DNA of 64,000 nucleotides from a virus: UHGV virus genome UHGV-0144373, one strand, 5' to 3'. Shown in pieces: positions 28,124-50,140 of the stretch (its first letter is position 1; every line of letters begins with the position of its first letter). The position numbers were made by a program, and so were the translations under genes. A model generated the notes under the pieces. It worked only from the letters and a program-made list of their open reading frames with translations. It was not told the origin of the DNA and did no database searches.

Positions 28124-28171
28124 TTGCATCAGACGGGGCGACAAGCTCCCTTCCTAAAATGGAAAGTCTAG

Positions 28172-28259: not shown

Positions 28260-28643
28260 ATGGCATATCGTGCACCTAAATTCATCAATAAAGATAATTT
28301 CCGCAATGCACTGGAAAAATCACTTGATGAGAATTTTACAGGTCAGATTATTGTTGTTCACGCATTCAATTTTAAGTATGATATTAACGGGAATAAAATC
28401 AATCATTACACGGCAACAATGTTAGATGGCACGCTTTCAAGTGAAAAAGCCGTACTAAATGCGCTTGCAGGACGTGGTAAAAACCTGATAAGATGCGATA
28501 AGAGACGTTATCAGGGCGGCGCATATGGTTATGATGATACTGTTTATCATCTTGAAAACATGGGCTATCAAGTAGAAAAAGCTGGAGTGTCGCAGATTAT
28601 TGGTCGTGATGGTTATGTAACTATCTTCAAAATTAACAAATAA
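28260..28643 (+). CDS. hypothetical small protein (cassette gene a)
   Basis: ATG28260 aligned with the conserved SD-ATG context. Confidence 0.45.
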   Translation: MAYRAPKFINKDNFRNALEKSLDENFTGQIIVVHAFNFKYDINGNKINHYTATMLDGTLSSEKAVLNALAGRGKNLIRCDKRRYQGGAYGYDDTVYHLENMGYQVEKAGVSQIIGRDGYVTIFKINK

Positions 28644-28730
28644 AGTACTTTACAAGGGGCTTATAGTTCGATAAAGTAAGCCCCAGATAAAGAGCTTTAC
28701 CACTAAATCCTAAATTGGAGAATCTGAAAA
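28644..28730 (+). promoter_or_regulatory. class-A cassette element (copy 2)
   Basis: Same element; palindrome TAAAGTACTTTA includes the upstream stop codon. Confidence 0.6.
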
Positions 28731-28988
28731 ATGGCTATTATTAAAAACGTTGTAATTACTGCAAAAACTCGTGATGACGCTCGCGTTATGGCTAAAAAGT
28801 TATGTGGGAAAGTGGTTGACAACGGGAAAAAATCTGCTGTAAGATGGGGCGTCAAGGTTGATAAACATTTAACCTTAAGACGCAGTTCAAACAACCTTTT
28901 TAAAGGTGTAAAATCACTCGGTAAAGTGAACGTTTTTACCAAAAAAGGCTATAAAATGCACTTATCATTAACTGGCAATTTAATCTGA
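28731..28988 (+). CDS. hypothetical small protein (cassette gene b)
   Basis: ORF after class-A element. Confidence 0.45.
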   Translation: MAIIKNVVITAKTRDDARVMAKKLCGKVVDNGKKSAVRWGVKVDKHLTLRRSSNNLFKGVKSLGKVNVFTKKGYKMHLSLTGNLI

Positions 28989-29076
28989 TAAAGTACTTTA
29001 CAAGGGGCTTAAAAGTTGTTACCTTAAGCCCCAGATAAAGAGCTTTACCACTAAATCCTAAATTGGAGATTCTAAA
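28989..29076 (+). promoter_or_regulatory. class-A cassette element (copy 3)
   Basis: Same element. Confidence 0.6.
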
Positions 29077-29589
29077 ATGAAAACTGTAGACGCTACCTTT
29101 GAAGTTGTAAAAGAAAAATTTTCAATTATCTATGAAGCGGTGAATTGCTACGAACCAAGCCATAATCTTGATGATTGGAAGTTTACAGATGACCATCAAG
29201 GCGGTGTGACTATTAAAAACCCCAACTATCGTCATAATGCCTTTAAATATGCAATCCCTTTAAATTATAGCCTTAAGCAGCTTTCTAGTGACTATGCAAA
29301 GCAAGGCCGGGAAAATCCATCCCGTGAGGCTTACATCAGCTTACAAAGAGAACTGGAAAGGGATTTAGAGGCTTCAGAATACAACCTTGCTGCAAAAGTT
29401 ATTGATGCAAATGGTCAAACAATTTTAGACAGTTTTTATATTGGTTACGCTTTCGATTGGTGCTATAGCGACGGCGTCGATTTAGAGGATAGACTAAAAG
29501 AGGAAGTGAGCAATTCAGGCGCAGAATCTGAAGTTATGGAACAACTAGAAGCCTTAAAAGATTCAGTGATGAATATCTTTAAGAACTAA
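29077..29589 (+). CDS. hypothetical protein (cassette gene c)
   Basis: 170 aa. Confidence 0.45.
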   Translation: MKTVDATFEVVKEKFSIIYEAVNCYEPSHNLDDWKFTDDHQGGVTIKNPNYRHNAFKYAIPLNYSLKQLSSDYAKQGRENPSREAYISLQRELERDLEASEYNLAAKVIDANGQTILDSFYIGYAFDWCYSDGVDLEDRLKEEVSNSGAESEVMEQLEALKDSVMNIFKN

Positions 29590-29681
29590 ATAGATTTCTT
29601 TACACGGGGTTATCAAGCTGATAAGATAGCCCCAGATAAAGAGCTTTATTTAAATCAACCCTTAAACTAGGAGATTCTAAA
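29590..29681 (+). promoter_or_regulatory. class-A cassette element (variant copy 4)
   Basis: Variant hairpin GGGGTTATC...GATAGCCCC, then AGATAAAGAGCTTTA and class-B-like CTTAAACTAGGAGATTCTAAA. Confidence 0.5.
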
Positions 29682-29978
29682 ATGAAATTATCAAATAAAG
29701 TTAGGGAAAATCTAAGCAAGTTACTCAACAAAATCGATTTTATCGAGACCTCAAGAAATACTCATGAGGTTATGGAATGGTTACACGGGAAAATAAATGG
29801 CCGCCGTGTAGTGATTTGTTTATGGAATAGTTGCAGGGAGTATAAAAAACCTGTATTACAAATTAATGTTTATGATGATACTTTTAAAAGTCCAGTAAAG
29901 TCTAAAAGCGATTTATTAGAATCTTATGAGATATCTGTAAATGGTAAAATCTCACAAAAAGAGGCAATACCATGCTGA
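29682..29978 (+). CDS. hypothetical small protein (cassette gene d)
   Basis: ORF. Confidence 0.45.
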   Translation: MKLSNKVRENLSKLLNKIDFIETSRNTHEVMEWLHGKINGRRVVICLWNSCREYKKPVLQINVYDDTFKSPVKSKSDLLESYEISVNGKISQKEAIPC

Positions 29979-30304
29979 TGACTGGTGTCACCGCAATTAT
30001 AGCCATTTTCGCGCTCTATAAGGCATATAAAGCCTATAATCTGGCAAGTAAGGCAATCACGCAGCAGGTTAGTAATAGCCTTGTAGAGAGCTTTCTAGAG
30101 CGTTTAAACGATGAACAAATAAAACGGTTAGAAATGAGCTTCAGATTTCAATCAAAAACTTATCAAATCAGCGACATTTTCAAAGATGATTTTCAGCTTG
30201 TCGATGATTATAACTCTCTGATAAATGCTTTAAATATCAGTGACTTAAAAGACTACTACGCTGTAATTGTCCAAGAAATGAGCAAACGAAAACAAAATGC
30301 TTGA
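29972..30304 (+). CDS. hypothetical small membrane protein (cassette gene e)
   Basis: N-terminal TM helix; AAAGAGG SD; no private element. Confidence 0.4.
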   Translation: MLMTGVTAIIAIFALYKAYKAYNLASKAITQQVSNSLVESFLERLNDEQIKRLEMSFRFQSKTYQISDIFKDDFQLVDDYNSLINALNISDLKDYYAVIVQEMSKRKQNA

Positions 30305-30393
30305 CACTGGTTTTTAGATAAATTAAATTACACATCAACGGGGAGGAAATGACCCCCCCACTAAATAAAACCCTTAAACTAGGAGATTCAAAA
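30301..30393 (+). promoter_or_regulatory. class-B cassette element (copy 1): promoter plus 5' stem-loop plus conserved SD
   Basis: TTGACA-17-TAAATT, hairpin GGGGAGG-AAATGA-CCCCCCC, leader ACTAAATAAAACCCTTAAACTAGGAGATTCAAAA. Confidence 0.55.
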
Positions 30394-30666
30394 ATGTATG
30401 CTACTAACAATGGTCGTACTCTAAATGTCACTCTGCGTCACTATGTAGACGGTGTGATGCACTTTGAGGATTTACGGGCTGAACAATATATCTTAGATTG
30501 GCAAGTCGCAGGACTCCAAAAAACTGTTACGGGATACGGTAAAAAGATTCCAACCAGTTGGAAAGTTCACTACAAAGGACGTTTGCGCAGAATTTATCAG
30601 GATGTTTGTAGCAATAGCGCATCAAGTTACATCATGGTAAAAGGTAAAAAGCTGCATTTAGTTTAA
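30394..30666 (+). CDS. hypothetical small protein (cassette gene f)
   Basis: ATG30394 after conserved SD; upstream in-frame ATG30349 lies in the hairpin loop and is not taken as the start. Confidence 0.45.
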   Translation: MYATNNGRTLNVTLRHYVDGVMHFEDLRAEQYILDWQVAGLQKTVTGYGKKIPTSWKVHYKGRLRRIYQDVCSNSASSYIMVKGKKLHLV

Positions 30667-30751
30667 AGTACTTTACAAGGGGCTTAAAAGTTGTTACCTT
30701 AAGCCCCAGATAAAGAGCTTTACCACTAAATCCTAAATTGGAGATTCAAAA
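30667..30751 (+). promoter_or_regulatory. class-A cassette element (copy 5)
   Basis: Same as copy 1. Confidence 0.6.
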
Positions 30752-31156
30752 ATGGCTATTAATAATCGTGAATTATCAATCTTAAAAGCACGTTTGACCA
30801 TTAATAGAATTAATGTTATGACATCAGCAGCGCCAGATGAAACCTTATATAATATTATTGGAAAGATTCAAAGTGTTATCTTAGACGTTGAAAACGTGAA
30901 AAACTCATTAACTGACGTTGCAGCAGGTATCACGCTAGACGGTGCACAATACGAAATGGCTGACATGTTGGGCAAATCTAAGGTAATGAATAAAGAGCTG
31001 GATTTAAAAATTTTTAGGTTCGCCGTGAAAGTATGGCTATCCGTCGAGTATGATGCTAATTATGCAATCGCTGACTTTTTCGCCACTTGGTTACAACGTA
31101 ATTTGACAAATCACGATTTTCGTGGTATCTGCGATGCAATTTATGCAGAACTCTAA
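30752..31156 (+). CDS. hypothetical protein (cassette gene g)
   Basis: 134 aa. Confidence 0.45.
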   Translation: MAINNRELSILKARLTINRINVMTSAAPDETLYNIIGKIQSVILDVENVKNSLTDVAAGITLDGAQYEMADMLGKSKVMNKELDLKIFRFAVKVWLSVEYDANYAIADFFATWLQRNLTNHDFRGICDAIYAEL

Positions 31157-31165
31157 AAAATTTTC

Positions 31166-31258
31166 TTGACGCTGGTTTTTAGATAGATTAAATTACACAT
31201 CAACGGGGAGGGTATGACCTCCCCACTAAATAAAACCCTTAAACTAGGAGATTCTAAA
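31166..31258 (+). promoter_or_regulatory. class-B cassette element (copy 2)
   Basis: TTGACG-17-TAAATT; perfect hairpin GGGGAGG-GTATGA-CCTCCCC. Confidence 0.55.
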
Positions 31259-31462
31259 ATGGCTATTATTAACGGTTTAAACATTGAAACCACACACATC
31301 AAAGATATTAAAGTCGGTGATACAGTTCTCTTTCACGGCGTAGAAAAAACCGTCACTGCAAAGGATATAAAAGAGGATTCTTTCATGGGTAGGACTCTTT
31401 TCGGTGATTCTTATTGCTTAGGTTACCTTGCAGTTTTAAAAGTTGTCAAAAATAACAAATAA
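31259..31462 (+). CDS. hypothetical small protein (cassette gene h)
   Basis: ATG31259 after conserved SD. Confidence 0.45.
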   Translation: MAIINGLNIETTHIKDIKVGDTVLFHGVEKTVTAKDIKEDSFMGRTLFGDSYCLGYLAVLKVVKNNK

Positions 31463-31547
31463 AGTACTTTACAAGGGGCTTATAGTTCGATAAAGTAAGC
31501 CCCAGATAAAGAGCTTTACCACTAAATCCTAAACTGGAGATTCTAAA
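31463..31547 (+). promoter_or_regulatory. class-A cassette element (copy 6)
   Basis: Same as copy 2. Confidence 0.6.
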
Positions 31548-32090
31548 ATGAAATGCTTTCACGGTACTACTCAAGAAAATTTCCTCAACCTGATTAATAA
31601 CGGTGATAAACCATCAGGTGCATGGAATTGTTCGGATATGGACGGCAATTTTTACGTGTACCCAGAGAATAAAATCTATGGCGACGATGAGGAAGAGATA
31701 ATCTCTGAAGGTATCCAACAAGCTATGGGAAATGCCGCTATCACCGCAGCTTTCCAGATGAAAACTCAAAACATTGTTATCTTGGAACTTGATATTCCAG
31801 AGGATGAGTTGAATGATGATTTCTCTTGCGATAATATGTCGAGCGTGGCAAGTTTTACAGAATACTTCGATTTGAATTGGATTAAAAAGGTTTACGTAAC
31901 CGAGTTTAATGCGATGTTTTCGCCTTTTTGTCTTCCTTCATTGGATAACCCAAATTTGAACTATCTTGATGAGTCTCTGGAGCTTCTTGCGAAAAGCGTT
32001 CAACAGGCGGACAGTATTCAGGTTTTTTGTGACATCATGGACACACTAACGGGAAACATCGCAGAGGGAGATTTAAAGAGCTTTTTCTGA
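31548..32090 (+). CDS. hypothetical protein (cassette gene i)
   Basis: 180 aa. Confidence 0.45.
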   Translation: MKCFHGTTQENFLNLINNGDKPSGAWNCSDMDGNFYVYPENKIYGDDEEEIISEGIQQAMGNAAITAAFQMKTQNIVILELDIPEDELNDDFSCDNMSSVASFTEYFDLNWIKKVYVTEFNAMFSPFCLPSLDNPNLNYLDESLELLAKSVQQADSIQVFCDIMDTLTGNIAEGDLKSFF

Positions 32091-32156
32091 AAACCTATGC
32101 AATCACCTTATAAACACTAATCAGCCCCTTGTAGGGGCTTTTAGGGGGCTTAAATC

Positions 32157-32390
32157 ATGCTTATAACCGTTTATCTCATCCTTTCTATTTGTAATGGCCA
32201 TTCATGCGACTTTAAAGGGCTTGAAGCGTTTACAGGAAGTAAAGAAAACGCTATTCAGGTTTGTCAGATAGCAAGACAAGACTACCCCGCCAGTGATGAT
32301 ATTCAATGCTACTTTAAAACAGAAGATGACGATGTAATCTATTTTGACAGCGTTGACGGTCAATATGAAATTATCATAGAAAAAGACTAG
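32157..32390 (+). CDS. hypothetical small protein (cassette gene j)
   Basis: ORF after hairpin AGCCCCTTGTAGGGGCT. Confidence 0.4.
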   Translation: MLITVYLILSICNGHSCDFKGLEAFTGSKENAIQVCQIARQDYPASDDIQCYFKTEDDDVIYFDSVDGQYEIIIEKD

Positions 32391-32480
32391 ACAAGCATGA
32401 TAAAAATCTGTAAATTACTAATTAACGGGGAGGAAATGACCCCCCCACTAAATAAAACCCTTAAACTAGGAGATTCAAAA
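32388..32480 (+). promoter_or_regulatory. class-B cassette element (copy 3)
   Basis: TAGACA-17-TAAATT; hairpin GGGGAGG-AAATGA-CCCCCCC. Confidence 0.5.
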
Positions 32481-32822
32481 ATGGCTTATGTAACCGTAAT
32501 TACCGATAAAGCTGGTTCATCTTGGTCAACTCAAGTAAGTGATAAGATGACACCTATGCAGTGCCTAAAATACTTTGAGCAATGGAATAAAGGCGAGGAA
32601 ACAAGCCCCTTTCAAGTGATGCAGATTATTCATGTAGACAATGAAGGGAATAAAACGGTTTTAAGTAGTGAGTACTACGCAAACCGCTTCGAAACGAGAA
32701 GTAAAGCAATGAAGCTTCTACGTGAATCCGGTTACTCCCATATCGCCGCACTAATCTGGGATGACCTGCTAAAAAACCAACGTATCAGCTATGTAAAACC
32801 TGAAAAAATATTCATCAGTTAA
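32481..32822 (+). CDS. hypothetical protein (cassette gene k)
   Basis: ATG32481 after conserved SD. Confidence 0.45.
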   Translation: MAYVTVITDKAGSSWSTQVSDKMTPMQCLKYFEQWNKGEETSPFQVMQIIHVDNEGNKTVLSSEYYANRFETRSKAMKLLRESGYSHIAALIWDDLLKNQRISYVKPEKIFIS

Positions 32823-32956
32823 TCAATAACTTACAAAAAACTTCTAAAAAAGTGTTGACAATACCCCTTGACATTGGTAATGTTGTTCGAGGGGGTTTAT
32901 CTAAAAGGGATTAACTTAAAAGATTCTTTATAGATAAGCTTAAAAAAAAAAATTGC

Positions 32957-33047
32957 TTGCAATCAGATATCAAAACAAGTAAATTACTAATCAACGGGAG
33001 GGATGACCTCCCCACTAAATAAAATCCTTAAACTAGGAGATTCAAAG
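32957..33047 (+). promoter_or_regulatory. class-B cassette element (copy 4)
   Basis: TTGCAA-17-TAAATT; hairpin GGGAGG-GATGA-CCTCCCC. Confidence 0.5.
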
Positions 33048-33578
33048 ATGAACAAGTTCAAAGCTATCAATTACATTCGTTCAAATGCTGTAATGTCTAA
33101 ACCTGTTAAAGATACCTATGAATTTCGCTGCAATGGTGTACACTTTGCAACCATCACTAAATCAGAAAAAGGGGCTTATTACGTTCATCGTCGTAATGTT
33201 GCAACCGTTGTAGTCTCTCATTTTATGCAAGCTATAGCGGAGTTATTACCGCTATTCTTAGAAATTTACTTAGATGAGTGTAAAAACGTTCACAAACACG
33301 TTAAAAGCCTTTTAAACAGTTATAAAATGGCTTACGAGCGTTCTATCAAGTTTTTAAACAAGTTCTATAAAGCCCCTGTAAATACTGTTTCAATGGCTTA
33401 CAATGTAAGCGGTGAGTTGGTTAGTCTCTTCGAAGTGGAAGAAATCGAACTATATAACTCACGTCCTGATGGTTACGCTAAGACACTGGGGGAAGGCTTA
33501 TCTTTCAATATCAAGAACTTAGAAAAAACTCTAAAAGATATTGAAAAAGATATTGACGAGACAATCAAAAATCTGTAA
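33048..33578 (+). CDS. hypothetical protein (cassette gene l)
   Basis: ATG33048 after conserved SD. Confidence 0.45.
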   Translation: MNKFKAINYIRSNAVMSKPVKDTYEFRCNGVHFATITKSEKGAYYVHRRNVATVVVSHFMQAIAELLPLFLEIYLDECKNVHKHVKSLLNSYKMAYERSIKFLNKFYKAPVNTVSMAYNVSGELVSLFEVEEIELYNSRPDGYAKTLGEGLSFNIKNLEKTLKDIEKDIDETIKNL

Positions 33579-33643
33579 ATTGTCAATCAACGGGGAGGCG
33601 ATAACCTCCCCACTAAATAAAGTCCTAAACTGGAGTTATCAAG
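33553..33643 (+). promoter_or_regulatory. class-B cassette element (copy 5)
   Basis: TTGACG-17-TAAATT; hairpin GGGGAGG-CGATAA-CCTCCCC (no ATG in loop). Confidence 0.5.
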
Positions 33644-33907
33644 ATGGAAAACGTAGAATTAACCACACTTTTACAAATTGCAACCGACAAAGAAAACGTA
33701 GCTTTATTTCACCGCATCGAAAGTGATTTGTTCAATGGTGAAATCATCAAAGAGTCTTACGAGGTTGTTGGATTCAAAGATGGTAAAACATTTGGATTCT
33801 TTGACCTCGAAAAAGGCAACGCTGTTACAAAATATGATGTTTTATCTTGTGAGATTCTTACAAAATACAACGAAAAAAGGCTTGCAACATACGCCAATAT
33901 GCAGTAA
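33644..33907 (+). CDS. hypothetical small protein (cassette gene m)
   Basis: ORF. Confidence 0.45.
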   Translation: MENVELTTLLQIATDKENVALFHRIESDLFNGEIIKESYEVVGFKDGKTFGFFDLEKGNAVTKYDVLSCEILTKYNEKRLATYANMQ

Positions 33908-33972
33908 ATTACTAATCAACGGGAGGGATGACCTCCCCACTAAATAAAATCCTTAAACTAGGAGATTCAAAA
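33883..33972 (+). promoter_or_regulatory. class-B cassette element (copy 6)
   Basis: TTGCAA-17-TAAATT; hairpin GGGAGG-GATGA-CCTCCCC. Confidence 0.5.
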
Positions 33973-34221
33973 ATGGCAACTATCCGCGCTACTGTTAACG
34001 AGTTCGGTTTTTCCTCTCTGGATGTTAAATTTGACATTGCAGGCACTGATAACGCCTTTGAAATGGTGAAAGGTCTTATCAGTCAGACCATCAAAGATTA
34101 TAATCCTTCGGATGAGTTCTGGGAGGAAACAAAACAAGAAGTTCTCAAGGATGGTTATACTTATCACTATTGGGGCGATTTAATTGTTTCCCTGTACTAC
34201 GATAAACAAGGTTACAACTAA
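33973..34221 (+). CDS. hypothetical small protein (cassette gene n)
   Basis: ATG33973 after conserved SD. Confidence 0.45.
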   Translation: MATIRATVNEFGFSSLDVKFDIAGTDNAFEMVKGLISQTIKDYNPSDEFWEETKQEVLKDGYTYHYWGDLIVSLYYDKQGYN

Positions 34222-34261
34222 TCAACGCAGCGGGGCTAAACAGCCCCAGATACCTTTATAC

Positions 34262-34284
34262 AGCCCCTCATAGGGGCTTTTTTA
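34262..34284 (+). terminator. rho-independent terminator
   Basis: AGCCCCT-CAT-AGGGGCT then TTTTTT; preceded by a second hairpin GGGGCT-AAAC-AGCCCC (34232-34247). Confidence 0.55.
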
Positions 34285-34289
34285 CGTCT

Positions 34290-35945
34290 TATCAAATCCC
34301 TTATACAACCCTTTCCCTTTCCTTTCCAGAATCTTTCCACTGATTCGATAAAGCCTATCTCATACCTTAAAAAGCAATAACTCTATAGCCTATTCTATAG
34401 CCTTTTATCAAATCCACTAATTGGCATTGTTACCAATCCCTTAAATATAAGCCCATAACCCGAAAGGGAAGGGCAACCCCTAAAACGCTCTATAACGCTC
34501 TATAACAGCCTTATCAACCTAACTTAATGGATTGCATTACCTCACCTTAAAAAGCTCTTTACAGGGCTTTATAGAGCCTTAAAAGAACCTTATAAGGGTA
34601 TAAGCTTTATCATCTCGTTAGTATTCTTGTGAACTACTAAAAAGGGTTTGATAGTTCCTTTAAAGTATGTTATAGGGGCTATAAAGTTACTTCAAAGTAA
34701 CGTAAAAGTTGCTTAAAAGTTACGTAAATGCTAGCCACCTTTAACATTTTCTTAACAATTTCTTAACAATCCCTACATAGTTATACTTGTTAGCAACTTG
34801 TCAGCCCCTTGTTAAATCTCTGTTAAGACCATGTAAAAGCCTTGTAAGAGTCTTTGACATAGCCTTTAAAGCTCCTGTAAAGCCCTATAAAGAGCTATCC
34901 ATACAGTTGAGGGGTAAATACTAGGGAGATACTAAAAGAGCCTATAAAGAGCTATAGAGAGCTTTTAAGAGGTATGTTTAAAGAATCACTAAAAGGGAAA
35001 GGGAACGATAAGAAAGAGATAGTGACCATGTTAACAGTTTGTTAAAAAGATTAAACACTTGTTAGGAACTTGTTAATTATCTTAATTGGTATTGTTACCA
35101 ATCCCTACAAAATAACTCTTTAAAATTAACTATATAGCTCTTGTTAGTCATCTATTAAGAATCTGTAAAGACTATTCAGCACTTGTTAGAAAACTGTTAC
35201 ACTCTTGTTAGTTCTGTTAAGAATCTGTTAAGACCTTTAAAGAGATGTTAAGACGATGTGAGAACTGTTAAGAGATTGTTAAGGATATTTTAAAATTTTG
35301 CAAAGGGGGTGTTAAGGAGCTGTTAAGGGCTACCAAGCAGATATACATCCTAATCAGATATTTTTCAGTTCCTTCAAAGACCCTAAAAAATGACTTGATA
35401 GTCCTATTTTATAAAAATTTTAAAATTCTGAATAATTACCTATACAGTCTTTTAAAAATACAGGTAGAAACAGGCTTATAAGATACCTTGTTAGTACCGT
35501 GTTAGACCTTGTGAGATAAGGTCTGTAAAGATATTCCTGTTAAGTTTGTTAAAACAGTCTATATAGAGGCTTAGTAATACCTAGTGAACACCTATAGAGG
35601 GTATCATAGCTAACCTAATGGGTTACTGTTAAGTAACACAGGTAACCTAGAGATTAAGAGGTGTATAGGAGCTTCTAAGAGGGTATAGAGAGATGGTTAA
35701 GGTGATTGTATAGGTTGTTAAGAAGGCTTGTTAGAGGGCTATTTAGAAGGGTTATACAGATGGCTATTAAGACCACTAGATAGTTACTAAGATACTATAT
35801 AGTACTATATAACTATATAGAGAGTAAGATTAAGAAGGTTGTTAAGAAGGATAGATATTTTATTCACATATGATGGTGACCCAGAGGTTGGGACAACCGA
35901 TAAAATTTTATAAAAAATATAAATTTCGTAAATTTTACTCAATAA
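34290..35945. repeat. 1.65-kb ORF-free, AT-rich region dense in short repeats
   Basis: No ORF of 60 aa or more on either strand; many copies of TGTTAAG/CTTGTTAG, TAAAGAGCT and TATAGAGAGCTT; duplicated 23-mer AATTGG(C/T)ATTGTTACCAATCCCT at 34419-34441 and 35084-35106. Confidence 0.7.
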
Positions 35946-35972
35946 AAAGCCCCCAATTAAGGAGGCTCTTAA
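35946..35972 (-). terminator. rho-independent terminator (minus strand)
   Basis: Minus-strand reading: AGCCTCC-TTAATT-GGGGGCT then TTTTTATT, just downstream of the stop of the 35979-36530 gene. Confidence 0.45.
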
Positions 35973-35978
35973 GATATT

Positions 35979-36530
35979 TTAAATCAGTGTTTCCAGAACT
36001 GTTTTTAGTGATGACTTAGTTGTCTGATAAAAATGAGTGAATCCGTTGTTGTTATCGAATATCTGCATCATGATATCATCTCCCTTGATTGGGTATACTC
36101 GGATATCATAGTGAAACCCATTAAAGACAGCAGAACCATTACAGAATACACTAAAATCACTTGCTGAGATGTACTCTTCATGACCTGTGATTTTTATACA
36201 GACACCTTTACTCGGTCTCTTAGGATTGATATCTTCCATCACAGACATACTCTGTCCACCAAGAGATACCATAGTGACCACTTTACGGTTCTTCTGTTTA
36301 AAGTACATCTTAACTTTCTGTAAAGTGTCTTCATAGAACGGGTAAGACTTCTCTACAAAGACTCCTTCAAGTGGCTCTTTACCATTTTTAACTTCTCTGA
36401 TATGTCGTATTGAGAAGACAAGCTGCTCTAGTATGTCAAGGCTTTCTTTGGATAATGCTTCTCGAACATCACTCCAGTCAAGTACTAGGTAGTTACCTTC
36501 AACTTCTTTTACATCCATAAGCTCTTTCAT
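35979..36530 (-). CDS. hypothetical protein
   Basis: 183 aa; ATG with GAAGGTAG SD; no confident motif. Confidence 0.4.
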   Translation of the reverse strand: MKELMDVKEVEGNYLVLDWSDVREALSKESLDILEQLVFSIRHIREVKNGKEPLEGVFVEKSYPFYEDTLQKVKMYFKQKNRKVVTMVSLGGQSMSVMEDINPKRPSKGVCIKITGHEEYISASDFSVFCNGSAVFNGFHYDIRVYPIKGDDIMMQIFDNNNGFTHFYQTTKSSLKTVLETLI

Positions 36531-36581
36531 TTCGCTACCTTCTAAGTTCTACAAAGGGGCTATCAAGTAACCCCTAAGTTA

Positions 36582-36806
36582 TTACTCAGACTTTTCAGTC
36601 TTCTTATCGGACTTCTTACTAGTCTTCTTCTCAGCTTTCTGTTCAGGTTCCTTCTCAGAAGTTGCCTTGATAACCATATCAAGAAGCTCTGATAAGTCAC
36701 TCTTCAGCAAAGTAACAGGCTGCTCATTGTAGAAGTTTTTGTCAAGATAGACTTTAAACTCTTCTATAGAAGGAAATCCAAAAATTGGTACAGGTGTCTT
36801 AATCAT
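36582..36806 (-). CDS. hypothetical protein with Lys/Glu-rich C-terminus
   Basis: 74 aa; GGAGAGA SD. Confidence 0.4.
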   Translation of the reverse strand: MIKTPVPIFGFPSIEEFKVYLDKNFYNEQPVTLLKSDLSELLDMVIKATSEKEPEQKAEKKTSKKSDKKTEKSE

Positions 36807-36882
36807 TACTTAGTCTCTCCATAGGCATCTTTTAAGATTGCCTTGTTAATCATTTCAGCGATTGCAAAACGAACACATACAG

Positions 36883-37386
36883 CTATAATTGTAGGTTGCA
36901 TTCTTTACTTACCTCTTCAAGTTTAACCTCAGAGTCCTTAAGTCGTTTCTTATGAACTCTGAACCTCATTAGTGAGATGATGATACCAGCTAAAGGAACA
37001 GCATACAAGTACCAAACATCATGTACCTTTGCAGTAATCTGTGTAATGGTCAAGTCTTGAGCTATACAACTGATTGCTGATACTGCCAGTAACATTGCTA
37101 AGAAGAACGCCAGTACCATAACAATACTTAGGCAACCTCTGGCATGGTGTTCATGCTTAATGCACTTATTCTTTTCGTCAACAACTCTGTTGTAGTCGTT
37201 TGTAAAGTCTCTGTAGAAAGCTTTCAAGTATTCTTGACTGTAGCCCTCAAAGCAACCTGTACCGTACCAATAATCACCACCAAAATGTGCTATGATACCG
37301 GTATCTCCATTTGGTTTGGTTACTCTTAGGGAGACATGATGACCAGTCTTCTGGTAATCTATTTTGTATCTTTCTTCGTAAATCAT
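36883..37386 (-). CDS. membrane protein (hypothetical)
   Basis: ATG at 37384-37386 with AGAGGTG SD (track start 37416 also possible); two predicted TM helices. Confidence 0.4.
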   Translation of the reverse strand: MIYEERYKIDYQKTGHHVSLRVTKPNGDTGIIAHFGGDYWYGTGCFEGYSQEYLKAFYRDFTNDYNRVVDEKNKCIKHEHHARGCLSIVMVLAFFLAMLLAVSAISCIAQDLTITQITAKVHDVWYLYAVPLAGIIISLMRFRVHKKRLKDSEVKLEEVSKECNLQL

Positions 37387-37601
37387 TTTCCAACACCTCT
37401 CAATCGTTTGTTCCATTCAAGGTCAACAAGTCTTTGCAGGACTTTCCCTCTAGGTGTTACACCTTTTAAATCTGCATCGTAGCAACGGTAAAAGTCACCT
37501 TCAGCGTGTTTACCATAGCATTTTCTGATATTCTGGCTTCTGCGATACTGTTCTAACAAGGACAGTTTGTAGTAATCTTCGACTGTAGTTAGTTTTTTCA
37601 T
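37383..37601 (-). CDS. hypothetical protein
   Basis: 72 aa; stop overlaps next start (ATGA). Confidence 0.35.
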   Translation of the reverse strand: MKKLTTVEDYYKLSLLEQYRRSQNIRKCYGKHAEGDFYRCYDADLKGVTPRGKVLQRLVDLEWNKRLRGVGK

Positions 37602-37684
37602 TCTTTCACCGTAGTGTTTCTCTAGAAACTAAAAAGGGAACTACCTCTCGATAGCTCCCATCATAATTAATATTGTATACTCGG

Positions 37685-38266
37685 TCAAGAGTATTTTTTA
37701 GGCAGCAATGCACTACGCTTGTTACTCTCTTCACTCAACAGTGCAATGAAATCATCACTTTTACCTTTCCACGGGCTGAATGAAGGTATGTGTTCGCGGA
37801 TAGCCTCAATCACTGTTTTAAGTGCTGTGTTCTTCATCCACCAATCAGAATCTGCTGATGCTACCACGTAGTATCCACCGTCATCAGTTAAAATTGGCTC
37901 TGAAATACATGGTGAAATCAAAGTGGTGATGATTGAACCATTGTTCATGTAGTATGTGCGTTTCATAACCTTTTCAAGAAGCTTGTGAAGGTCACCAAAC
38001 AGTGTTACAAGTTCTTTGTGGTCAATATCTTTTTCGAGGTTTGCTCGATACTTCAATAGAGCAGCATCAACCTCTCTATCATTGAACTTGAAATATTGAA
38101 CTTCTTCAACAAGGCAAACACTGATGTTGTTAACATTCATAGTCAACTTACAAACTTTTGCAGGAGAGTTGATACTTGGTTGAAAAAGTGCAACACACCC
38201 TTCAATGTTTCCAAAATGTTGTACCAGTGTTACTTGTGGAGTGATATTCTGTTGCTCTTCGGACAT
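37685..38266 (-). CDS. hypothetical protein
   Basis: 193 aa; GAGGAAA SD. Confidence 0.4.
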   Translation of the reverse strand: MSEEQQNITPQVTLVQHFGNIEGCVALFQPSINSPAKVCKLTMNVNNISVCLVEEVQYFKFNDREVDAALLKYRANLEKDIDHKELVTLFGDLHKLLEKVMKRTYYMNNGSIITTLISPCISEPILTDDGGYYVVASADSDWWMKNTALKTVIEAIREHIPSFSPWKGKSDDFIALLSEESNKRSALLPKKYS

Positions 38267-38610
38267 TACAGTTTCCTCATTAAATACTTTTTAAGTTGTG
38301 TGTTAGGTTTCTCAAAAACTTCTATAGAAGATATCTTGACAGCTTCACCACGCATACCAGTATGTTTGAATATGTAATACTCTAACATCCCTATGTACTT
38401 TGCTGGTAAGTCATATTTGACATACACCGTCACAGAATCTTCAAATTCGACAACCTTTGTACCATCTTTGTAGTTAAACTCTTTAGGATGGTTGTAGTTG
38501 TCTATGTCGTACATTAAAAAGAGTCTTTTACGTTGTAGGTCAAGCTTATTTGTTAAAGACTCTTTGATATCTGAGAAGTTTTTGTACACTGTGACATGGA
38601 GCTTATTCAT
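38266..38610 (-). CDS. hypothetical protein
   Basis: ATG at 38608-38610 with GAGAG SD (track start 38652 is an alternative codon). Confidence 0.35.
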   Translation of the reverse strand: MNKLHVTVYKNFSDIKESLTNKLDLQRKRLFLMYDIDNYNHPKEFNYKDGTKVVEFEDSVTVYVKYDLPAKYIGMLEYYIFKHTGMRGEAVKISSIEVFEKPNTQLKKYLMRKL

Positions 38611-38896
38611 CGTTAAACTCTCTGACGAAGAAATAGTTGACTTTGTTATCACCTACCATAAGGTCAAAGCAGGTATTTTCAAAAGGTTTGTTGTAGGCAT
38701 CATATGAAACATATGGGTCAGCTACTTGCTTAGTGCTTAACTTCTTACTTGATGGTTTTAAGAGGCCACCATACAGCTTCTTGATAGCCTCTTCTACAAC
38801 AGACCAGATAATTTCGTCAGTAATTTCTTCGTACAGGTCAAGTTCACGCTCTAGTGAGAAGTCACAAATAGGGAAAATAACCTGTACTTTACTCAT
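38603..38896 (-). CDS. hypothetical protein
   Basis: 97 aa. Confidence 0.35.
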   Translation of the reverse strand: MSKVQVIFPICDFSLERELDLYEEITDEIIWSVVEEAIKKLYGGLLKPSSKKLSTKQVADPYVSYDAYNKPFENTCFDLMVGDNKVNYFFVREFNDE

Positions 38897-39285
38897 TAAC
38901 GGATAACCTGTGTGACTTGAATTGCTTCAGTTACTGATAAATCACCTACTTGCTCTTCTTTGATAAAAGTGAAGGTAAGTTCAACGGGTTCTTGCTCTTC
39001 TTGCTCAACCGGAACACCGTTAAGCTCATCAAAGATTGACTGAGTTGTCCAGTCTTCTCCACCATCTGGATAATGGATGGCGTAACGAGGAAACTCCATA
39101 TCATACCAGCCAAATACAGGACAACCATCTTCATCATCTCGCATTCTGCGAAGGGTGCTACCTGAGCCTGTAAAGCGAAGACTAATATTCCCATTACACT
39201 CAAAAATCACTGCGTCGGCAAGTCCAGTATCTTCTCGACCATCATGTCCAAAAGTGTCAACTTTTACTTGAATCTCTTTATTCAT
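38896..39285 (-). CDS. hypothetical protein
   Basis: 129 aa; GAGAGAGG SD. Confidence 0.4.
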   Translation of the reverse strand: MNKEIQVKVDTFGHDGREDTGLADAVIFECNGNISLRFTGSGSTLRRMRDDEDGCPVFGWYDMEFPRYAIHYPDGGEDWTTQSIFDELNGVPVEQEEQEPVELTFTFIKEEQVGDLSVTEAIQVTQVIR

Positions 39286-39676
39286 AAAAACCTCTCTCTG
39301 CTTGTTCGATTTTTGCTCTTAAAACTTCACAACGTTCTATGTGATATCTGGCCTCATGCTCATGTGTTGCCAAAGTCCTTTCAAGAACTGTTTTATAGTA
39401 ACTCACAAGCTGCTCTCTTGTCAAGGGATGTTCTGAAATAATATCAAGGCCGCTTTCCCCTAGAGTATTAAACTGCCCGTGTTCATTTACATGGTAAGTC
39501 TCAAACTTGAATAGGCCGTTGTTAGCAGCCTCAATAGGTGAGAGTTCAACCAACTCAACAGTAAACATTGTGTGTACCCTATCACCAATTGTAACAATGT
39601 TGCTACCAATGATTCTCACCATTGAGCCATTGCGAGTGTACTTAAAAGTTCCAAAGTCACTAGCCCAAAGTTTCAT
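39278..39676 (-). CDS. hypothetical protein
   Basis: 132 aa; AAGGAGAAA SD. Confidence 0.4.
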   Translation of the reverse strand: MKLWASDFGTFKYTRNGSMVRIIGSNIVTIGDRVHTMFTVELVELSPIEAANNGLFKFETYHVNEHGQFNTLGESGLDIISEHPLTREQLVSYYKTVLERTLATHEHEARYHIERCEVLRAKIEQAERGFYE

Positions 39677-39727
39677 AGTTTTCTCCTTAGAAAATAAAAA
39701 AGGCTCCCGAAGGAGCCTATGAAGATA

Positions 39728-40192
39728 TTACTTTGGATATACACTGTCAAGATAAATCTCAGCTTCCATTCTACGTCTGTTTTTCAGGCCGTTTGAAGTG
39801 ACATTCTTACCTTTGACTGTAACCTTGTTCCACCATTGCATAGCTTCTGCACAACCGGCCTTATTACCATCGTTGTGGCGCTTGATAAATGTGGAATCCT
39901 GCATAGCTGTGATGCCAATGTTGTATGTTTCACTTACAAGTGCATCAAACTCATTCTGAGAAGTTGGAACCTTGATAGCTTTGTTCACTGCTGCAACGAA
40001 CTTTTCAACATCTGCGAGAAGATACTGTTCAGCTTGTTCAGCGGTAATCCTCATACCCATCTTAACAGGTTTGCCAGCAATACGGATTGTCCCGTACCCA
40101 ATTGTGGGGATTCCAGCAGAATCTTCGTAAGCCTCTAGCTTAAGACCTTCAAAGAACTTAATAGCTTCTAAACCTTTTCTTGAGAGTTGCAT
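39728..40192 (-). CDS. endolysin, GH24 lysozyme (T4 e / lambda R-like)
   Basis: 154 aa; N-terminal LEAIKFFEGLKLEAYEDSAGIPTIGYGT matches the catalytic Glu/Asp/Thr region of phage lysozymes; GGAGGTATA SD. Confidence 0.8.
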   Translation of the reverse strand: MQLSRKGLEAIKFFEGLKLEAYEDSAGIPTIGYGTIRIAGKPVKMGMRITAEQAEQYLLADVEKFVAAVNKAIKVPTSQNEFDALVSETYNIGITAMQDSTFIKRHNDGNKAGCAEAMQWWNKVTVKGKNVTSNGLKNRRRMEAEIYLDSVYPK

Positions 40193-40824
40193 TATACCTC
40201 CCCTGCTGGGTTAACTGTAACTGTTGCCGCATTAGATGTTACAGAGCCACCTGCGCCAGTAACTACACAGGTGTAGCTTCCTGTATCAGCAGCGGTTGCA
40301 CCTTCTTTGGTGTAAGTTGCAGTAGTTGCATCGAGGATGTCTTCCTCACCTTTCTTCCACTGGTAACCTGTCGCACCTGTTGCCACAACATTCAGCGTTA
40401 AGGTCTCACCTTCATTGATTTCTTGATTGGTTGGTTGCTGAGTGATTGATGGTGGCTTGATAGCATCCTTCAACTTAGCATTCAACATTGAGAATGGTTT
40501 AACTCTTGCCAGCCATTCACAATAAACTGTATCAACGTCTTTACCATTGATAATTGCATATTGTAAGTCCATGAAGAAGTCAGAAGTTCTCATTTGAGCA
40601 CCGATGCTGTAAAGCAACTCATCACTAAATGGGACTTTATAGGCTGGTTTGTAGTCAAACTTCTTAACTTCTGCAATATCAGCTTCAGGCCAATACGAAC
40701 TATAGGTAAGTGGTAAAATAGCCTCTTGATATGTTCTAAAATCATATCTCTTACCAGCCTTTACGTTTGCAATGAAGCCCTTCACAAACTCTTTGAAGTC
40801 TGGGTAAGTCTTTGCTTTAATCAT
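40192..40824 (-). CDS. paralog pair member with C-terminal Ig-like domain
   Basis: 210 aa; N-terminal 125 aa homologous to the next gene; C-terminus PPSITQQP...EGETLTLNVVATGATGYQWKKGEE...DTGSYTCVVTGAGGSV is an I-set-like Ig pattern. Confidence 0.45.
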   Translation of the reverse strand: MIKAKTYPDFKEFVKGFIANVKAGKRYDFRTYQEAILPLTYSSYWPEADIAEVKKFDYKPAYKVPFSDELLYSIGAQMRTSDFFMDLQYAIINGKDVDTVYCEWLARVKPFSMLNAKLKDAIKPPSITQQPTNQEINEGETLTLNVVATGATGYQWKKGEEDILDATTATYTKEGATAADTGSYTCVVTGAGGSVTSNAATVTVNPAGEV

Positions 40825-41192
40825 TTCTTTTTAGCCTCTAAATGTGCGTTTAGTCTAAAATAACCTTTGTGATGCGGAGATACATCACCAACAACAACAC
40901 CTTTAACCTTATAACCTTTACCAATTACATACTGAATATCCATAAGGAATCTTCCCAGACCAACAATATGGAACATTGGATATAATAGATTCTCAGAGTC
41001 TGGAATATTGATTTCTGGTTTGTAGGTGCGTTGTTCGCTTGTTGGTGTAATATCTTCTTCAGGCCATTTACTGAGTCTCCATGTCAAAGGTGTTGGGATA
41101 ACATCATTAAGGTTGTACCTTTCACCATTTTGCACGGAATTGATATAGGATTGTAGGAAGCAATAAAAGTCTTTTGCACTCTTAGCTTTCAT
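40821..41192 (-). CDS. paralog pair member (no Ig domain)
   Basis: 123 aa; shares Y(P/N)DF..F(V/L)..(F/Y)I..V..G.RY and FxMDxQY(A/V)I motifs with the upstream paralog. Confidence 0.45.
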   Translation of the reverse strand: MKAKSAKDFYCFLQSYINSVQNGERYNLNDVIPTPLTWRLSKWPEEDITPTSEQRTYKPEINIPDSENLLYPMFHIVGLGRFLMDIQYVIGKGYKVKGVVVGDVSPHHKGYFRLNAHLEAKKK

Positions 41193-41239
41193 TAAATATC
41201 CTTATAAATAGTTAAAGGGGCATCAGCCCCTATTCACAC

Positions 41240-41830
41240 TTAAGCTTTGGTCTTAAGTAGGTTCTTAAGTTTTTTAAGATTCATACTCTCATCAAACTTA
41301 AAACCAAATCCATTGACATAATCAATGAACTCGGATTTCTTACTGAGTGACAGTGCGTAACTCATATCAAAGTTCTTACTTGTTTCTGCGTCTGGACTAG
41401 AGTTCACATCAAATGAAATTTCTGTAGGCTCTTGCTTACTTTTTCTCATATTATCAATTAACAAACATGTATAGTTTGCTGGATAGAAGTTTACACTACC
41501 ATCAACGTAGCTGTACTTATTATTATGGATAAGGTTGGAAAATACCTTAAGGAATGTTTCTGAGTCGTGGCAAACAAGTTTGAATTGGCTGCTCTCTCCA
41601 AGTGCAACTAATGAGTACGGACTTTCACTATCGAAGTCATAGTTTGGATTCGATGTCGTCACTGTTACACGCATCAAGTTATTAGCAATAGTCTTCTGTT
41701 TAAAAGAATTTTGAACATAGTGAAGACCTCTACCACACTGATTGACTAGCTCTTTAAGTAGGTCATTTGCATACGGTGAATTAATTGATACAGAGCCATC
41801 ACTATTGTAATTAAAACTTACTGTTAACAT
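41240..41830 (-). CDS. hypothetical protein
   Basis: 196 aa. Confidence 0.4.
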   Translation of the reverse strand: MLTVSFNYNSDGSVSINSPYANDLLKELVNQCGRGLHYVQNSFKQKTIANNLMRVTVTTSNPNYDFDSESPYSLVALGESSQFKLVCHDSETFLKVFSNLIHNNKYSYVDGSVNFYPANYTCLLIDNMRKSKQEPTEISFDVNSSPDAETSKNFDMSYALSLSKKSEFIDYVNGFGFKFDESMNLKKLKNLLKTKA

Positions 41831-42057
41831 TTTTCAGTTCTCCTGCGATTTATAATTTTGCTGCAATAGAGAAACGAAGTAAACTCACTGGAAGAAACCA
41901 TTAAGTGTTGTTCACTAGATTGAGCCATTGCCCTGAAATACATTCCAGTCAAAGCATCATAGTGACTATTCTTTCCAATTGAGGTTATATAGCCATGACT
42001 CTTTGCAGTTTGATATAAATCTATAATATCTGCGATTTCTAATTGGGAACTACACAT
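41824..42057 (-). CDS. hypothetical protein
   Basis: 77 aa; AAGAGGA SD. Confidence 0.35.
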   Translation of the reverse strand: MCSSQLEIADIIDLYQTAKSHGYITSIGKNSHYDALTGMYFRAMAQSSEQHLMVSSSEFTSFLYCSKIINRRRTEKC

Positions 42058-50119: not shown

Positions 50120-50140
50120 TTCTATTTGCGGAGGCGCTTA

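Follow-up and report, generated by a model that had tools for sequence, protein, structure and literature searches.

A gene-free, repeat-dense region of a Felix O1-like phage as the probable terminal region of its chromosome

What does a phage keep in 1.65 kb of DNA that carries no gene? The question is raised by the virus genome UHGV-0144373, of which a stretch of 64,000 nucleotides (here called the window) was analysed, and in which positions 34290 to 35945 hold no sizeable reading frame and many short repeats. A sequence-only reading of the window had put forward a replication origin, a packaging or terminus-associated site, a protein-binding array and a long non-coding RNA locus as candidates. 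Comparison with related phages makes it very probable that the region is the terminal region, or concatemer junction, of a Felix O1-like chromosome that is packaged as linear, non-permuted DNA with a short direct terminal repeat (DTR). The identity of the region is in this sense already known, as the ends were mapped earlier in close relatives, and it is real and largely ordinary. The substructure of its repeat arrays, however, appears to be undescribed in the literature that was searched.

A gene-free region between two terminators

The phage belongs to the genus Felixounavirus, the Felix O1-like myoviruses. The region is matched by 257 Felixounavirus-type records at 80-95% identity. The phage is a species-level lineage distinct from these, its nearest database genome being only about 90% identical. 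From the stop of the last plus-strand gene at 34221 to the stop of the first minus-strand gene at 35979, the longest open reading frames are 45 aa, so that the earlier claim of a region free of frames of 60 aa or more holds. It also holds for the relatives, where the sequence-only reading had asked whether intact genes lie here and none do. A conserved frame was sought across 24 homologous regions and none was found: frames of at least 60 aa occur in 0 of the 24, the longest is 53 aa, and two of the regions are devoid even of frames of at least 30 aa.

The two neighbouring genes offer no functional hint. The gene at 33928..34221 (plus strand, 97 aa), the last before the right chromosome end, falls in PHROG 4559, and the gene at 35979..36530 (minus strand, 183 aa), the first past the left chromosome end and transcribed toward it, also falls in a PHROG family; in both cases the family is without functional annotation. 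Many GenBank records start about 1.2 kb ahead of the latter gene. Terminators flank the region on both sides, as the earlier reading had claimed. Rightward transcription is predicted to end at an intrinsic terminator at 34262..34285 on the plus strand, made up of a hairpin at 34262-34278 (AGCCCCTCATAGGGGCT) followed by TTTTT, and terminators are annotated at the equivalent place in phages Barry and Moogle. Leftward transcription would end at 35941..35964 on the minus strand, where a hairpin at 35964-35950 is followed by a T-run; this terminator is conserved at 0.99 within the genus and is annotated in Moogle too.

Terminal repeat and chromosome ends

Evidence on the nature of the region comes from relatives. 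Exact terminal duplications are found at both ends of four records, I14.1 (581 bp), ZX4221 (591 bp), Pr103Blw (581 bp) and CRP22 (579 bp), and the boundaries of all four align to window positions 34734 and 35334. In the Pr103Blw record the 581-bp duplications are annotated as a short DTR found by PhageTerm (PMC8303462), and I14.1 was likewise analysed with PhageTerm (PMC11737134). For UAB_Phi87, a DTR of 608 bp and the absence of cos ends were established by Bal31 digestion, run-off sequencing and a heat test (PMC4837284). The segment 34734-35334 is present twice in 22 of 222 records, and record MW481326 annotates the repeat as a 'short direct terminal repeat'. The DTRs of UAB_Phi87 and Pr103Blw lie at the same locus, with 34734-35334 aligning end to end and both boundary sequences in common. 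The Felix O1 genome paper itself goes no further than to infer 'short terminal repeats' and has no description of the present region. Among the functions first proposed, the packaging or terminus-associated site was the right one, as the ends of relatives and their DTR of about 600 bp map inside the region (PMC4837284, PMC8303462). A headful pac site was rejected because independent records share boundaries that are identical to the base and because Bal31 takes off discrete terminal fragments from UAB_Phi87 DNA (PMC4837284).

The ends of the present phage are placed by homology, which suggests that they would be the same. The equivalent of the DTR is the 601-bp segment 34734..35334, onto which the exact duplications of the four records map. 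The assembly shows it only once, having been circularised and then opened at another point; virion DNA would have two copies. To its left lies a non-coding flank of 512 bp (34222..34733), which in the virion would form the tail of the right arm, the unique DNA adjoining the right-end copy of the DTR. To its right, a non-coding flank of 644 bp (35335..35978) would form the head of the left arm. The convergence of plus- and minus-strand transcription noted earlier is thus only apparent, a product of the circularly opened assembly at what is a concatemer junction. In the virion, the two gene blocks lie at opposite ends of the linear chromosome, and each is transcribed outwards.

The left chromosome end would fall between A34733 and G34734 (AAATGCTA/GCCACC), where the exact DTRs of the four records begin and where several further GenBank records start or end. 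The right end would fall between C35334 and A35335 (GTTAAGGGCTACC/AAGCAGATATAC; in short, ..GGGCTACC/AAGCAG..), where the same four DTRs stop and where the pEP20 record starts on the opposite strand. The right boundary motif, GGCTACCAAGCAGATATAC, is identical in all 24 genomes compared, and 17 of the 24 also have the exact left motif. The distance between the two motifs is 579-658 bp in 17 genomes; in UAB_Phi87 it is 614 bp as against the 608 bp found by experiment, so that the exact cut positions could be a few bases off. A short sequence, GCTW^G, read on the strand whose 5' end is created, is present at both boundaries in the enteric genera. As a shared nick-site motif it was dropped, because it is too short and weakens in Erwinia phage phiEa21-4.

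Distinct sequence elements lie just outside each of the cut sites. On the left, two AAAGTWACGTAAA units 22 bp apart (34694..34730), with the palindrome TTACGTAA at 34720-34727 within the pair, form a candidate left-end recognition element directly outside the cut. This element is kept in Moogle and mistaenkt, the latter with four GTTACGTA copies. On the right, an AT-rich block at 35335..35480 (26% GC, falling to 20% over 35395-35465) is a candidate core packaging or cleavage signal, and would be the first unique DNA past the left-end DTR in the virion. Its sub-blocks are, in order, AAGCAGATATACA, CAGATAT, CTTCAAAG, CTTGATAG and an A/T run.

Within the genus, the region as a whole is as conserved as the flanking genes. 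The AT-rich block reaches 0.93-1.00, the highest of the region; positions 35325-35349 are 100% conserved and 35325-35600 are 97-100% conserved, while the left flank (34222..34733) stands at 0.8-0.95. Beyond the genus, Mooglevirus and Suspvirus have conserved the two boundaries, making three genera in all, and both can be recognised in phiEa21-4. The AT-rich sub-blocks can likewise be recognised in Moogle, mistaenkt and phiEa21-4, with AAGCAGATATACA at the right boundary of the last as well, and four genera of the subfamily Ounavirinae share the terminal architecture. Cross-genus nucleotide identity is 75-77% for the region and 66-81% for the flanking genes, only modestly better, and this conservation was for that reason not used as strong evidence. 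An argument from base composition (a region of 35% GC in a Suspvirus genome of 47% GC) was also dropped, as the flanking genes of mistaenkt are 36-38% GC too.

Arrays of short oriented units

The earlier description of the region as packed with short repeats was compared, on both strands, with 500 dinucleotide-preserving shuffles of the region, and it stood up, with motifs enriched 10- to 70-fold over the shuffles. TGTTAAG occurs 14 times against 0.50 in shuffles (shuffle maximum 4), CTTGTTAG 7 times against 0.13, CTGTTAAG 7 times against 0.10, CTNTWAAG 27 times against 2.0, and CTATAKAG 11 times against 0.42. Motif density is 18-27 per 500 bp in the region; for the remaining window the median is 1 (95th percentile 5), and a search for a second cluster across the 64 kb found none. 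The motifs are given here as explicit patterns; an EM motif search was abandoned in their favour, as it yielded a weak palindromic A/T-rich profile of 3.7 bits in total.

In all, about 45 oriented 8-bp units (TGTTAAG, CTTGTTAG, CTNTAAAG) occupy the DTR and the right flank over about 1.1 kb. The DTR starts with three (C/T)TTAACA units on the minus strand (34740..34768), spaced 11 bp apart and inverted with respect to the remaining array, so that the direction of the units changes about 40 bp in from the left boundary. This is followed on the plus strand by an array of about 30 8-bp units (CTTGTTAG, CTGTTAAG, CTNTAAAG, CTATAGAG) at 34786..35329, mostly 10-11 bp apart, which extends up to the right cut site. 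A second plus-strand array, at 35487..35846 in the flank that would be unique to the left end, is made up of TGTTAG/TGTTAAG, CTATATAG and CTATTAAG, and is conserved at 0.95-1.0 in the genus apart from an indel. The left flank (34222..34733) carries units of the CTCTATAR, CTTTAYAG and CCTTAAAAG types, mostly in the opposite orientation to the units of the DTR. The tandem repeat that had been placed at 34485-34510 is also present, as two copies of CGCTCTATAA at 34486-34505.

The spacing of the units is mostly close to one helical turn. Distances of 10 or 11 bp make up 36% of those between neighbours, compared with 5.8% under random placement (maximum 21% in 5000 trials), and the lags between all pairs of units peak at 11, 20-22, 31-33, 42-44 and 55. 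Spectral power at 10-11.5 bp, in contrast, falls inside the range of background seen in other 601-bp windows for both the DTR and the right flank, and for this reason only a local spacing is claimed. The left flank alone comes near the background maximum of the 601-bp windows and, of the three segments, shows the strongest local periodicity at 11.1 bp. Within the DTR, motif cores are better conserved than spacers, at 93% versus 73% in mistaenkt and 83% versus 68% in Moogle. The inverted units at the start of the DTR are kept in Moogle and mistaenkt and occur as GTTAACA/TTTAACA in phiEa21-4, in which the TGTTAAG(A) unit is also enriched, with 9 copies of TGTTAAGA against 0.06 expected.

A duplicated 23-mer (AATTGGCATTGTTACCAATCCCT) singled out earlier does exist as exact plus-strand copies at 34419..34441 and 35084..35106, with 0.01 expected, but it is not conserved and is a presence/absence insertion: the first copy is unique to this phage among 24 genomes, and the second, a 22-bp insertion, is found in 5 of the 24. 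A further indel of 32 bp at 35611-35642, bordered by TAACCTA, lies inside the second array.

The orientation of the units, their 10-11 bp spacing and the better preservation of their cores make the protein-binding array proposed earlier plausible, and suggest that the arrays bind protein. A search for a candidate binder among the flanking reading frames and a 66-aa frame (49919-50119) upstream of the large terminase gave none, as these fall in PHROG families without functional annotation. No small terminase is annotated in Felix O1-like phages (PMC4837284). Papers on Felix O1-like DTRs, as far as searched, give the length of the repeat and no description of flanks, boundary motifs or arrays, and the main text of a knockout study of Bas63, a Felixounavirus, holds no intergenic data on the region.

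Packaging and alternative functions

The likeliest function of the region is recognition and cleavage by terminase together with DTR-mediated formation of concatemers. By analogy with T7-type phages with short DTRs, replication and recombination between DTRs would yield head-to-tail concatemers with one repeat per junction. Terminase would then recognise the conserved blocks outside the boundaries, the two AAAGTWACGTAAA units on the left and the AAGCAGATATACA...CAGATAT...AT-rich series on the right, and may cut between 34733 and 34734 on one strand and between 35334 and 35335 on the other. Strand-displacement synthesis would duplicate the repeat, leaving a copy at both ends of each packaged genome, and the terminators on both sides would prevent transcription, which runs outwards in each arm, from entering the terminal DNA. 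The large terminase subunit is encoded at 50126-51742, and the large terminase of the genus is reported to cluster with DTR-type terminases (PMC4837284). The units, about 45 in number and mostly one helical turn apart, would most likely be a cooperative binding platform for a phage protein in the cleavage or packaging process, possibly a small terminase or recognition subunit.

The junction of T7 and T3 is similar in that a short exact DTR has many 7-8-bp units inside and adjoining it. In T7, 17 C(C/T/A)TAAAG units lie within the first 470 bp, in or next to the 160-bp repeat, compared with about 45 units here, and the TAAAG-like core is shared with the CTNTAAAG class. There is, however, no sequence homology between the two, T7 units are mostly 13 bp apart rather than 10-11 bp, and the repeat is about four times longer here. 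Packaging of T7 begins at the concatemer junction (PMC3276506). Critical positions in T7 are found at the repeat boundary and insertions are tolerated at most other terminal loci (bioRxiv 10.1101/2024.10.10.617714), and individual units may therefore be dispensable in the present phage. The RNA polymerase of T7 pauses at the junction, with ATCTGTT at T7 position 161; this pause signal was rejected as a shared feature, since ATCTGTT occurs only once in the region. A single-subunit RNA polymerase has not been reported for Felix O1-like phages (PMC3185647). The early promoters of T7 lie after the left repeat and are directed inwards; here, in contrast, transcription of both arms runs toward the ends.

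The R sites of lambda cosB and the pacL/pacR sites of SPP1 are short repeated elements bound by a known small-terminase subunit. The region is similar in having several short elements next to a cleavage site, with a phased spacing that suggests a wrapped or bent nucleoprotein complex. The lambda and SPP1 sites differ in holding a handful of elements over 100-200 bp rather than about 45 units over 1.1 kb, and fixed DTRs are found in neither phage, lambda having cohesive ends and SPP1 headful, permuted ones.

It is conceivable, if unlikely, that the region is or also holds a replication origin, in which the units would be iterons and the AT-rich block at 35335-35480 an unwinding element. Such a function is compatible with a role as terminus, and in T7 secondary origins adjoin the terminal repeats. 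As in iteron-type origins, helix-phased direct repeats here are dense and adjoin an AT-rich stretch (26% GC; 20% over 35395-35465), although AT-richness alone is not diagnostic of an unwinding element. Cumulative GC skew also has a local extremum at the region; it is uninformative on this point, as the skew changes where transcription changes direction. At 8 bp the units are shorter than typical iterons (17-22 bp), and their positional logic follows the chromosome ends, unlike that of iteron-type origins. The region has one match to the DnaA box (TTWTNCACA), at 35860, in place of a cluster, no consensus sites for IHF or Fis, and no adjacent initiator gene, the neighbours belonging to PHROG families without functional annotation. 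The origin suggested by the sequence-only reading thus finds no positive support beyond the AT-rich block, while those features that do have a positive explanation, the boundaries and the duplication in virion records, belong to a terminus. A long non-coding RNA, or several, was suggested as well, and we hold this to be very improbable. A conserved stretch of 1.65 kb without reading frames might be expected of such a locus, and 35335-35945 folds somewhat more stably than its shuffles (z of -1.9 on the plus strand and -3.0 on the minus strand), a weak signal of the kind that palindromic units such as CTATATAG would give. A search of Rfam returned no family match (best E 0.39, over a terminator), sigma-70-like sites show no enrichment (14 against 9.8 +/- 3.0), the region is shielded by terminators that point into it from both sides, and indels of 22-32 bp are tolerated.

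The arrays might also serve as a binding platform apart from packaging, such as a regulator sink or operator, a 'telomere' for end protection or synapsis, or a silencing or nucleoid anchor. There are 7 TGTTAA-N5-TGTTAA pairs in the region and a single one in the remaining 62 kb. A spacing of one helical turn and a uniform orientation are what a binding platform would have, and phages of Escherichia, Salmonella, Citrobacter and Erwinia all retain the motif, which would fit a conserved phage or enterobacterial protein. Tandem hexamers with N5 between them resemble sites of the OmpR/PhoB family, for which PhoP TGTTTA, CpxR GTAAA and PhoB CTGTCAT are known boxes; the resemblance is one of architecture only, as all hexamers here are TGTTAA with no exact match to these boxes, and CpxR-type GTAAA-N5-GTAAA pairs number 0 in the region. 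No candidate protein was found for such a role, and the layout of the arrays, which break off at the right cut site and change orientation close to the left, ties them to the chromosome ends. We consider a platform of this kind improbable. Least credible of all is a non-functional filler of decayed genes or slippage repeats at a recombination-prone junction, for which we see almost no likelihood. Several presence/absence indels, a small element at differing positions and a DTR length that ranges from 579 to 658 bp are in keeping with it. Against it stand conservation within the genus equal to that of the flanking genes (97-100% over 35325-35600), the better conservation of motif cores than of spacers, and an architecture and boundary sequences that are kept in four genera.

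Under the preferred reading, a packaging junction with its arrays as platform, the units combine one-helical-turn spacing and inversion at the left end with conservation from Escherichia and Salmonella phages to those of Erwinia. We put forward, as a tentative and rather doubtful extension, that they may be the recognition code of a putative sequence-specific end-binding protein of the Ounavirinae, either an equivalent of the small terminase or a telomere-like complex for pairing, protecting or marking the ends. If this is true, the protein would coat about 1 kb of DNA, unlike a compact pac or cos site.

Taken as the terminal repeat, 34734-35334 fixes the true start and end of the chromosome and corrects the gene map, in which the 'converging' gene blocks become the two arms of the chromosome, each facing outwards. 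Annotation, engineering and comparison likewise gain a defined point at which to open the genome. Salmonella typing and biocontrol make use of Felix O1-like phages, and Bas63 is among the emerging models for engineering. The boundary blocks and arrays provide concrete targets for the study of how the Ounavirinae recognise and cut their DNA, and they also delimit a minimal junction fragment for transduction or in vitro packaging.

Probable chromosome ends within the ORF-free interval

The ORF-free, repeat-dense interval at 34290-35945 is real and highly non-random. Between the stops at 34221 and 35979 there is no ORF of 60 aa or more, as the sequence-only reading had stated, and the same is true of 24 of 24 homologous regions from relatives, where the longest ORF is 53 aa, two regions lack any ORF of at least 30 aa, and no conserved ORF was found. 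The terminators described on both sides are present, with one intrinsic terminator ending the transcription unit on each flank. The proposed motif enrichment is also borne out. Measured against 500 dinucleotide-preserving shuffles, TGTTAAG occurs in 14 copies versus 0.5, CTTGTTAG in 7 versus 0.13, and CTNTWAAG in 27 versus 2.0. Motif density reaches 18-27 matches per 500 bp in the region versus a median of 1 elsewhere in the window, and there is no second cluster within the 64 kb. Both the tandem CGCTCTATAA (34486-34505) and the two 23-mers (34419-34441 and 35084-35106) are exact.

A sequence search with 34230-35980 gave matches of 80-95% identity to 257 phage records. Almost all of these are Felix O1-like myoviruses of Escherichia, Salmonella, Shigella, and Citrobacter, belonging to Felixounavirus and neighboring genera. 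In many GenBank records of these relatives the sequence starts or stops inside the region, and invariably at one of two positions. Of seven such records retrieved at both ends, four, from different laboratories, carry an exact duplication at their two ends (I14.1, 581 bp; ZX4221, 591 bp; Pr103Blw, 581 bp; CRP22, 579 bp). In all four, the direct terminal repeat (DTR) starts at ..AAATGCTA|GCC.., equivalent to 34733|34734, and ends at ..GTTAAGGGCTACC|AAGCAG.., equivalent to 35334|35335. The Pr103Blw record labels this segment a short direct terminal repeat, which was determined with PhageTerm (PMC8303462), and I14.1 was likewise run through PhageTerm (PMC11737134). Used as query, the 601-bp segment matches 222 records, of which 22 contain it twice. 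In UAB_Phi87, a Felix O1-like phage, a 608-bp DTR was determined by Bal31 digestion and run-off sequencing, and cohesive ends were absent by a heat test (PMC4837284); in its genome the boundary motifs lie 614 bp apart.

Given these shared ends, the duplications, and the UAB_Phi87 repeat, the ORF-free region is very probably the chromosome terminus with its repeat; a terminus-associated site was among the candidates raised from the sequence. It would comprise a right-arm tail (34222-34733), the terminal repeat (34734-35334), and a left-arm head (35335-35978). The class of end, short, exact, non-permuted DTRs, is established. The assembly was circle-closed and then opened elsewhere, and the "converging" blocks are two chromosome arms, each transcribed outwards to its own end. 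Both gene blocks do point into the region, as had been noted, but they meet only in the replicative concatemer. The locus is the DTR already reported for Felix O1-like phages (PMC4837284, PMC8303462), and its identity is ordinary and known for the genus. The Felix O1 genome paper had inferred only "short terminal repeats" and did not discuss the interval (PMC3185647).

The 81,579-bp IMG/VR metagenome contig 3300045988_004931 has its end ~16 nt into the DTR from the left boundary (equivalent to ~34750 in the window), as would an assembly broken at a physical end or repeat. GenBank GU169904.1 ("Staphylococcus phage SA1", 147 kb) contains a Felix O1-like terminal region at 135365-137080 with ~88% identity, which suggests a chimeric or contaminated deposit. 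The taxonomy line of PP892526.1 (Escherichia phage vB_EcoM_I14.1) reads Tequintavirus, probably wrongly, as by sequence this phage, with its 581-bp DTR, belongs to Felixounavirus.

Genomic setting

The window encodes a large terminase, portal, protease, and major head gene, along with 25 tRNA genes, rIIA/rIIB, and nucleotide metabolism genes. Over 14 kb (28000-42000), the window shares only ~90% identity with the nearest genome of the phage collection; the source is therefore a further lineage of this well-known genus, probably a Felixounavirus species missing from that collection. Three neighboring ORFs of 151, 154, and 159 aa (14924-16650) all belong to phrog_29478 (function unknown) and so form a tandem paralogue array. 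GATC has 0 sites in the window versus 184 +/- 11 expected from dinucleotide shuffles; the 6-bp palindromes ATGCAT, CTGCAG, GAATTC, GAGCTC, CACGTG, and GCATGC are also at zero, with 7-22 expected for each, and depletion extends to CTAG, CCGG, and CGCG. Such a pattern suggests that restriction or Dam sites are strongly avoided. A 60-90-bp intergenic element occurs in at least six copies between small genes downstream of rIIB (28164-28238, 28639-28711, 28981-29059, 29598-29664, 30660-30734, and 31432-31530); four sites between genes of Erwinia phage phiEa21-4 match it at 75-83%. The promoter/terminator direct repeats that the Felix O1 genome paper describes (PMC3185647) are probably its counterpart.

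Arrays, boundary blocks, and their conservation

Directly outside the left cut site are two AAAGTWACGTAAA units, 22 bp apart, that include the palindrome TTACGTAA. At its start, the DTR has three minus-oriented (C/T)TTAACA units spaced 11 bp apart, followed from 34786 by a main array of ~30 plus-oriented units (CTTGTTAG, CTGTTAAG, CTNTAAAG, CTATAGAG) that stops no more than five bases short of the right cut site. Directly outside that site is a 146-bp block of 26% GC, made up in order of AAGCAGATATACA, CAGATAT, CTTCAAAG, CTTGATAG, and an A/T run. A second plus-oriented array occupies 35487-35846, and related units (CTCTATAR, CTTTAYAG, CCTTAAAAG), most of them facing the other way, are found in the left flank. 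Among 43 plus-strand units, 36% of neighbor spacings are 10 or 11 bp versus 5.8% under random placement (maximum 21% in 5000 trials), and all-pair distances peak at 11, 20-22, 31-33, 42-44, and 55 bp. The phasing is local, with whole-segment spectral power unremarkable save in the left flank.

Across 24 sequences of the genus (mean pairwise identity 91%), the region is conserved on par with the flanking genes, reaching 97-100% at 35325-35600 and 35650-35900. Where conservation drops, the cause is indels rather than substitutions, namely the two 23-mers, an insert of 32 bp (35611-35642) that contains a GTTAC..GTAAC hairpin and is itself flanked by direct TAACCTA, and an AT-rich 25-bp insert (35916-35940), both inserts varying by presence or absence. 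The 23-mer is a 21-23-nt palindromic element, ATTGG(C/T)ATTGTTACCAATCCC, with arms TTGGTA/TACCAA, mostly bordered by TA..TA. It is present or absent at at least five different terminal-region positions among the 24 relatives, once inverted (noted at homologous loci L002, L019, L023, L029, L031, L037, and L038, the last being UAB_Phi87), and none was found outside the terminal region of the window. It is possible that it is a tiny mobile binding site, or that it reflects gene conversion between array units.

Beyond the genus, Citrobacter phage Moogle (1.74 kb, terminators annotated on both sides) and the Suspvirus mistaenkt (1.73 kb) have equivalent gene-free intervals that align to the window at 75-77% over ~1.65 kb with both boundaries intact. 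Inside the DTR, motif-core columns are better conserved than spacers (93% vs 73% in mistaenkt, 83% vs 68% in Moogle). In Erwinia phage phiEa21-4 (Kolesnikvirus), the matching position in gene order is a gap of 1.2-1.4 kb, and only 128 bp around the right boundary align by BLAST. This gap contains nine copies of TGTTAAGA versus 0.06 expected. Its presumed left end (TA|GCCAC..) has TTAACA units in inverted orientation, its presumed right end has AAGCAGATATACA, and its left-flank unit is a different one (CTTCTAAR). Given their conservation in these three phages, the architecture and main unit are features of the whole subfamily.

Possible functions and the T7 analogy

In the accepted model for T7-class phages, replication and recombination between repeats produce concatemers with one repeat per junction. 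Terminase would then nick opposite strands at the two DTR boundaries, and strand-displacement synthesis would duplicate the DTR to leave one copy at each end of the packaged genome. The invariant blocks just outside each boundary may serve as recognition and cleavage signals, and the phased, oriented arrays as a cooperative protein-binding platform, one tied to the ends, since the arrays end at the right cut and change orientation at the left. We lean slightly towards these arrays acting in packaging or end processing rather than in something else. Small terminase annotation is absent in Felix O1-like phages (PMC4837284). A 66-aa acidic ORF (49919-50119, plus strand; PHROG 4397, function unknown) sits where the small terminase gene usually lies, directly upstream of the large terminase gene (50126-51742).

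An origin of replication could coexist with the terminus, and the AT-rich block is the sole point in its favor; there is but one DnaA-box match, IHF and Fis sites and an initiator gene are lacking, and GC skew tracks transcription direction. Alternatively, the arrays may bind a regulator or host factor, as is suggested by the hexamer-N5-hexamer architecture of TGTTAA-N5-TGTTAA, found seven times in the region versus once elsewhere, although the units match no known box. The long non-coding RNA also proposed from the sequence drew no support from promoter, Rfam, or RNA-fold scans, and conservation contradicts non-functional filler.

Among well-studied systems, the T7 concatemer junction is the nearest parallel to this locus. 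The T7 left end has, by our count, 17 C(C/T/A)TAAAG units within and beside a 160-bp repeat, mostly 13 bp apart. In T7, insertions are harmful close to the repeat boundary but tolerated at most other terminal loci (bioRxiv 10.1101/2024.10.10.617714), and packaging begins at the junction, where RNA polymerase pauses (PMC3276506). Both systems combine a short DTR with unit arrays, and one Felix-type unit class has a TAAAG-like core. However, sequence homology is absent, the Felix-type repeat is about four times longer, its spacing is helical rather than 13-bp, and its adjacent genes are transcribed outwards rather than inwards; a phage RNA polymerase, moreover, is not reported for Felix O1-like phages (PMC3185647). 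The literature searched holds no description of the substructure, namely the boundary motifs, two-sided arrays, orientation switch, and four-genus conservation, and this substructure gives a tangible starting point for defining how Felix O1-like phages recognize their DNA for packaging.
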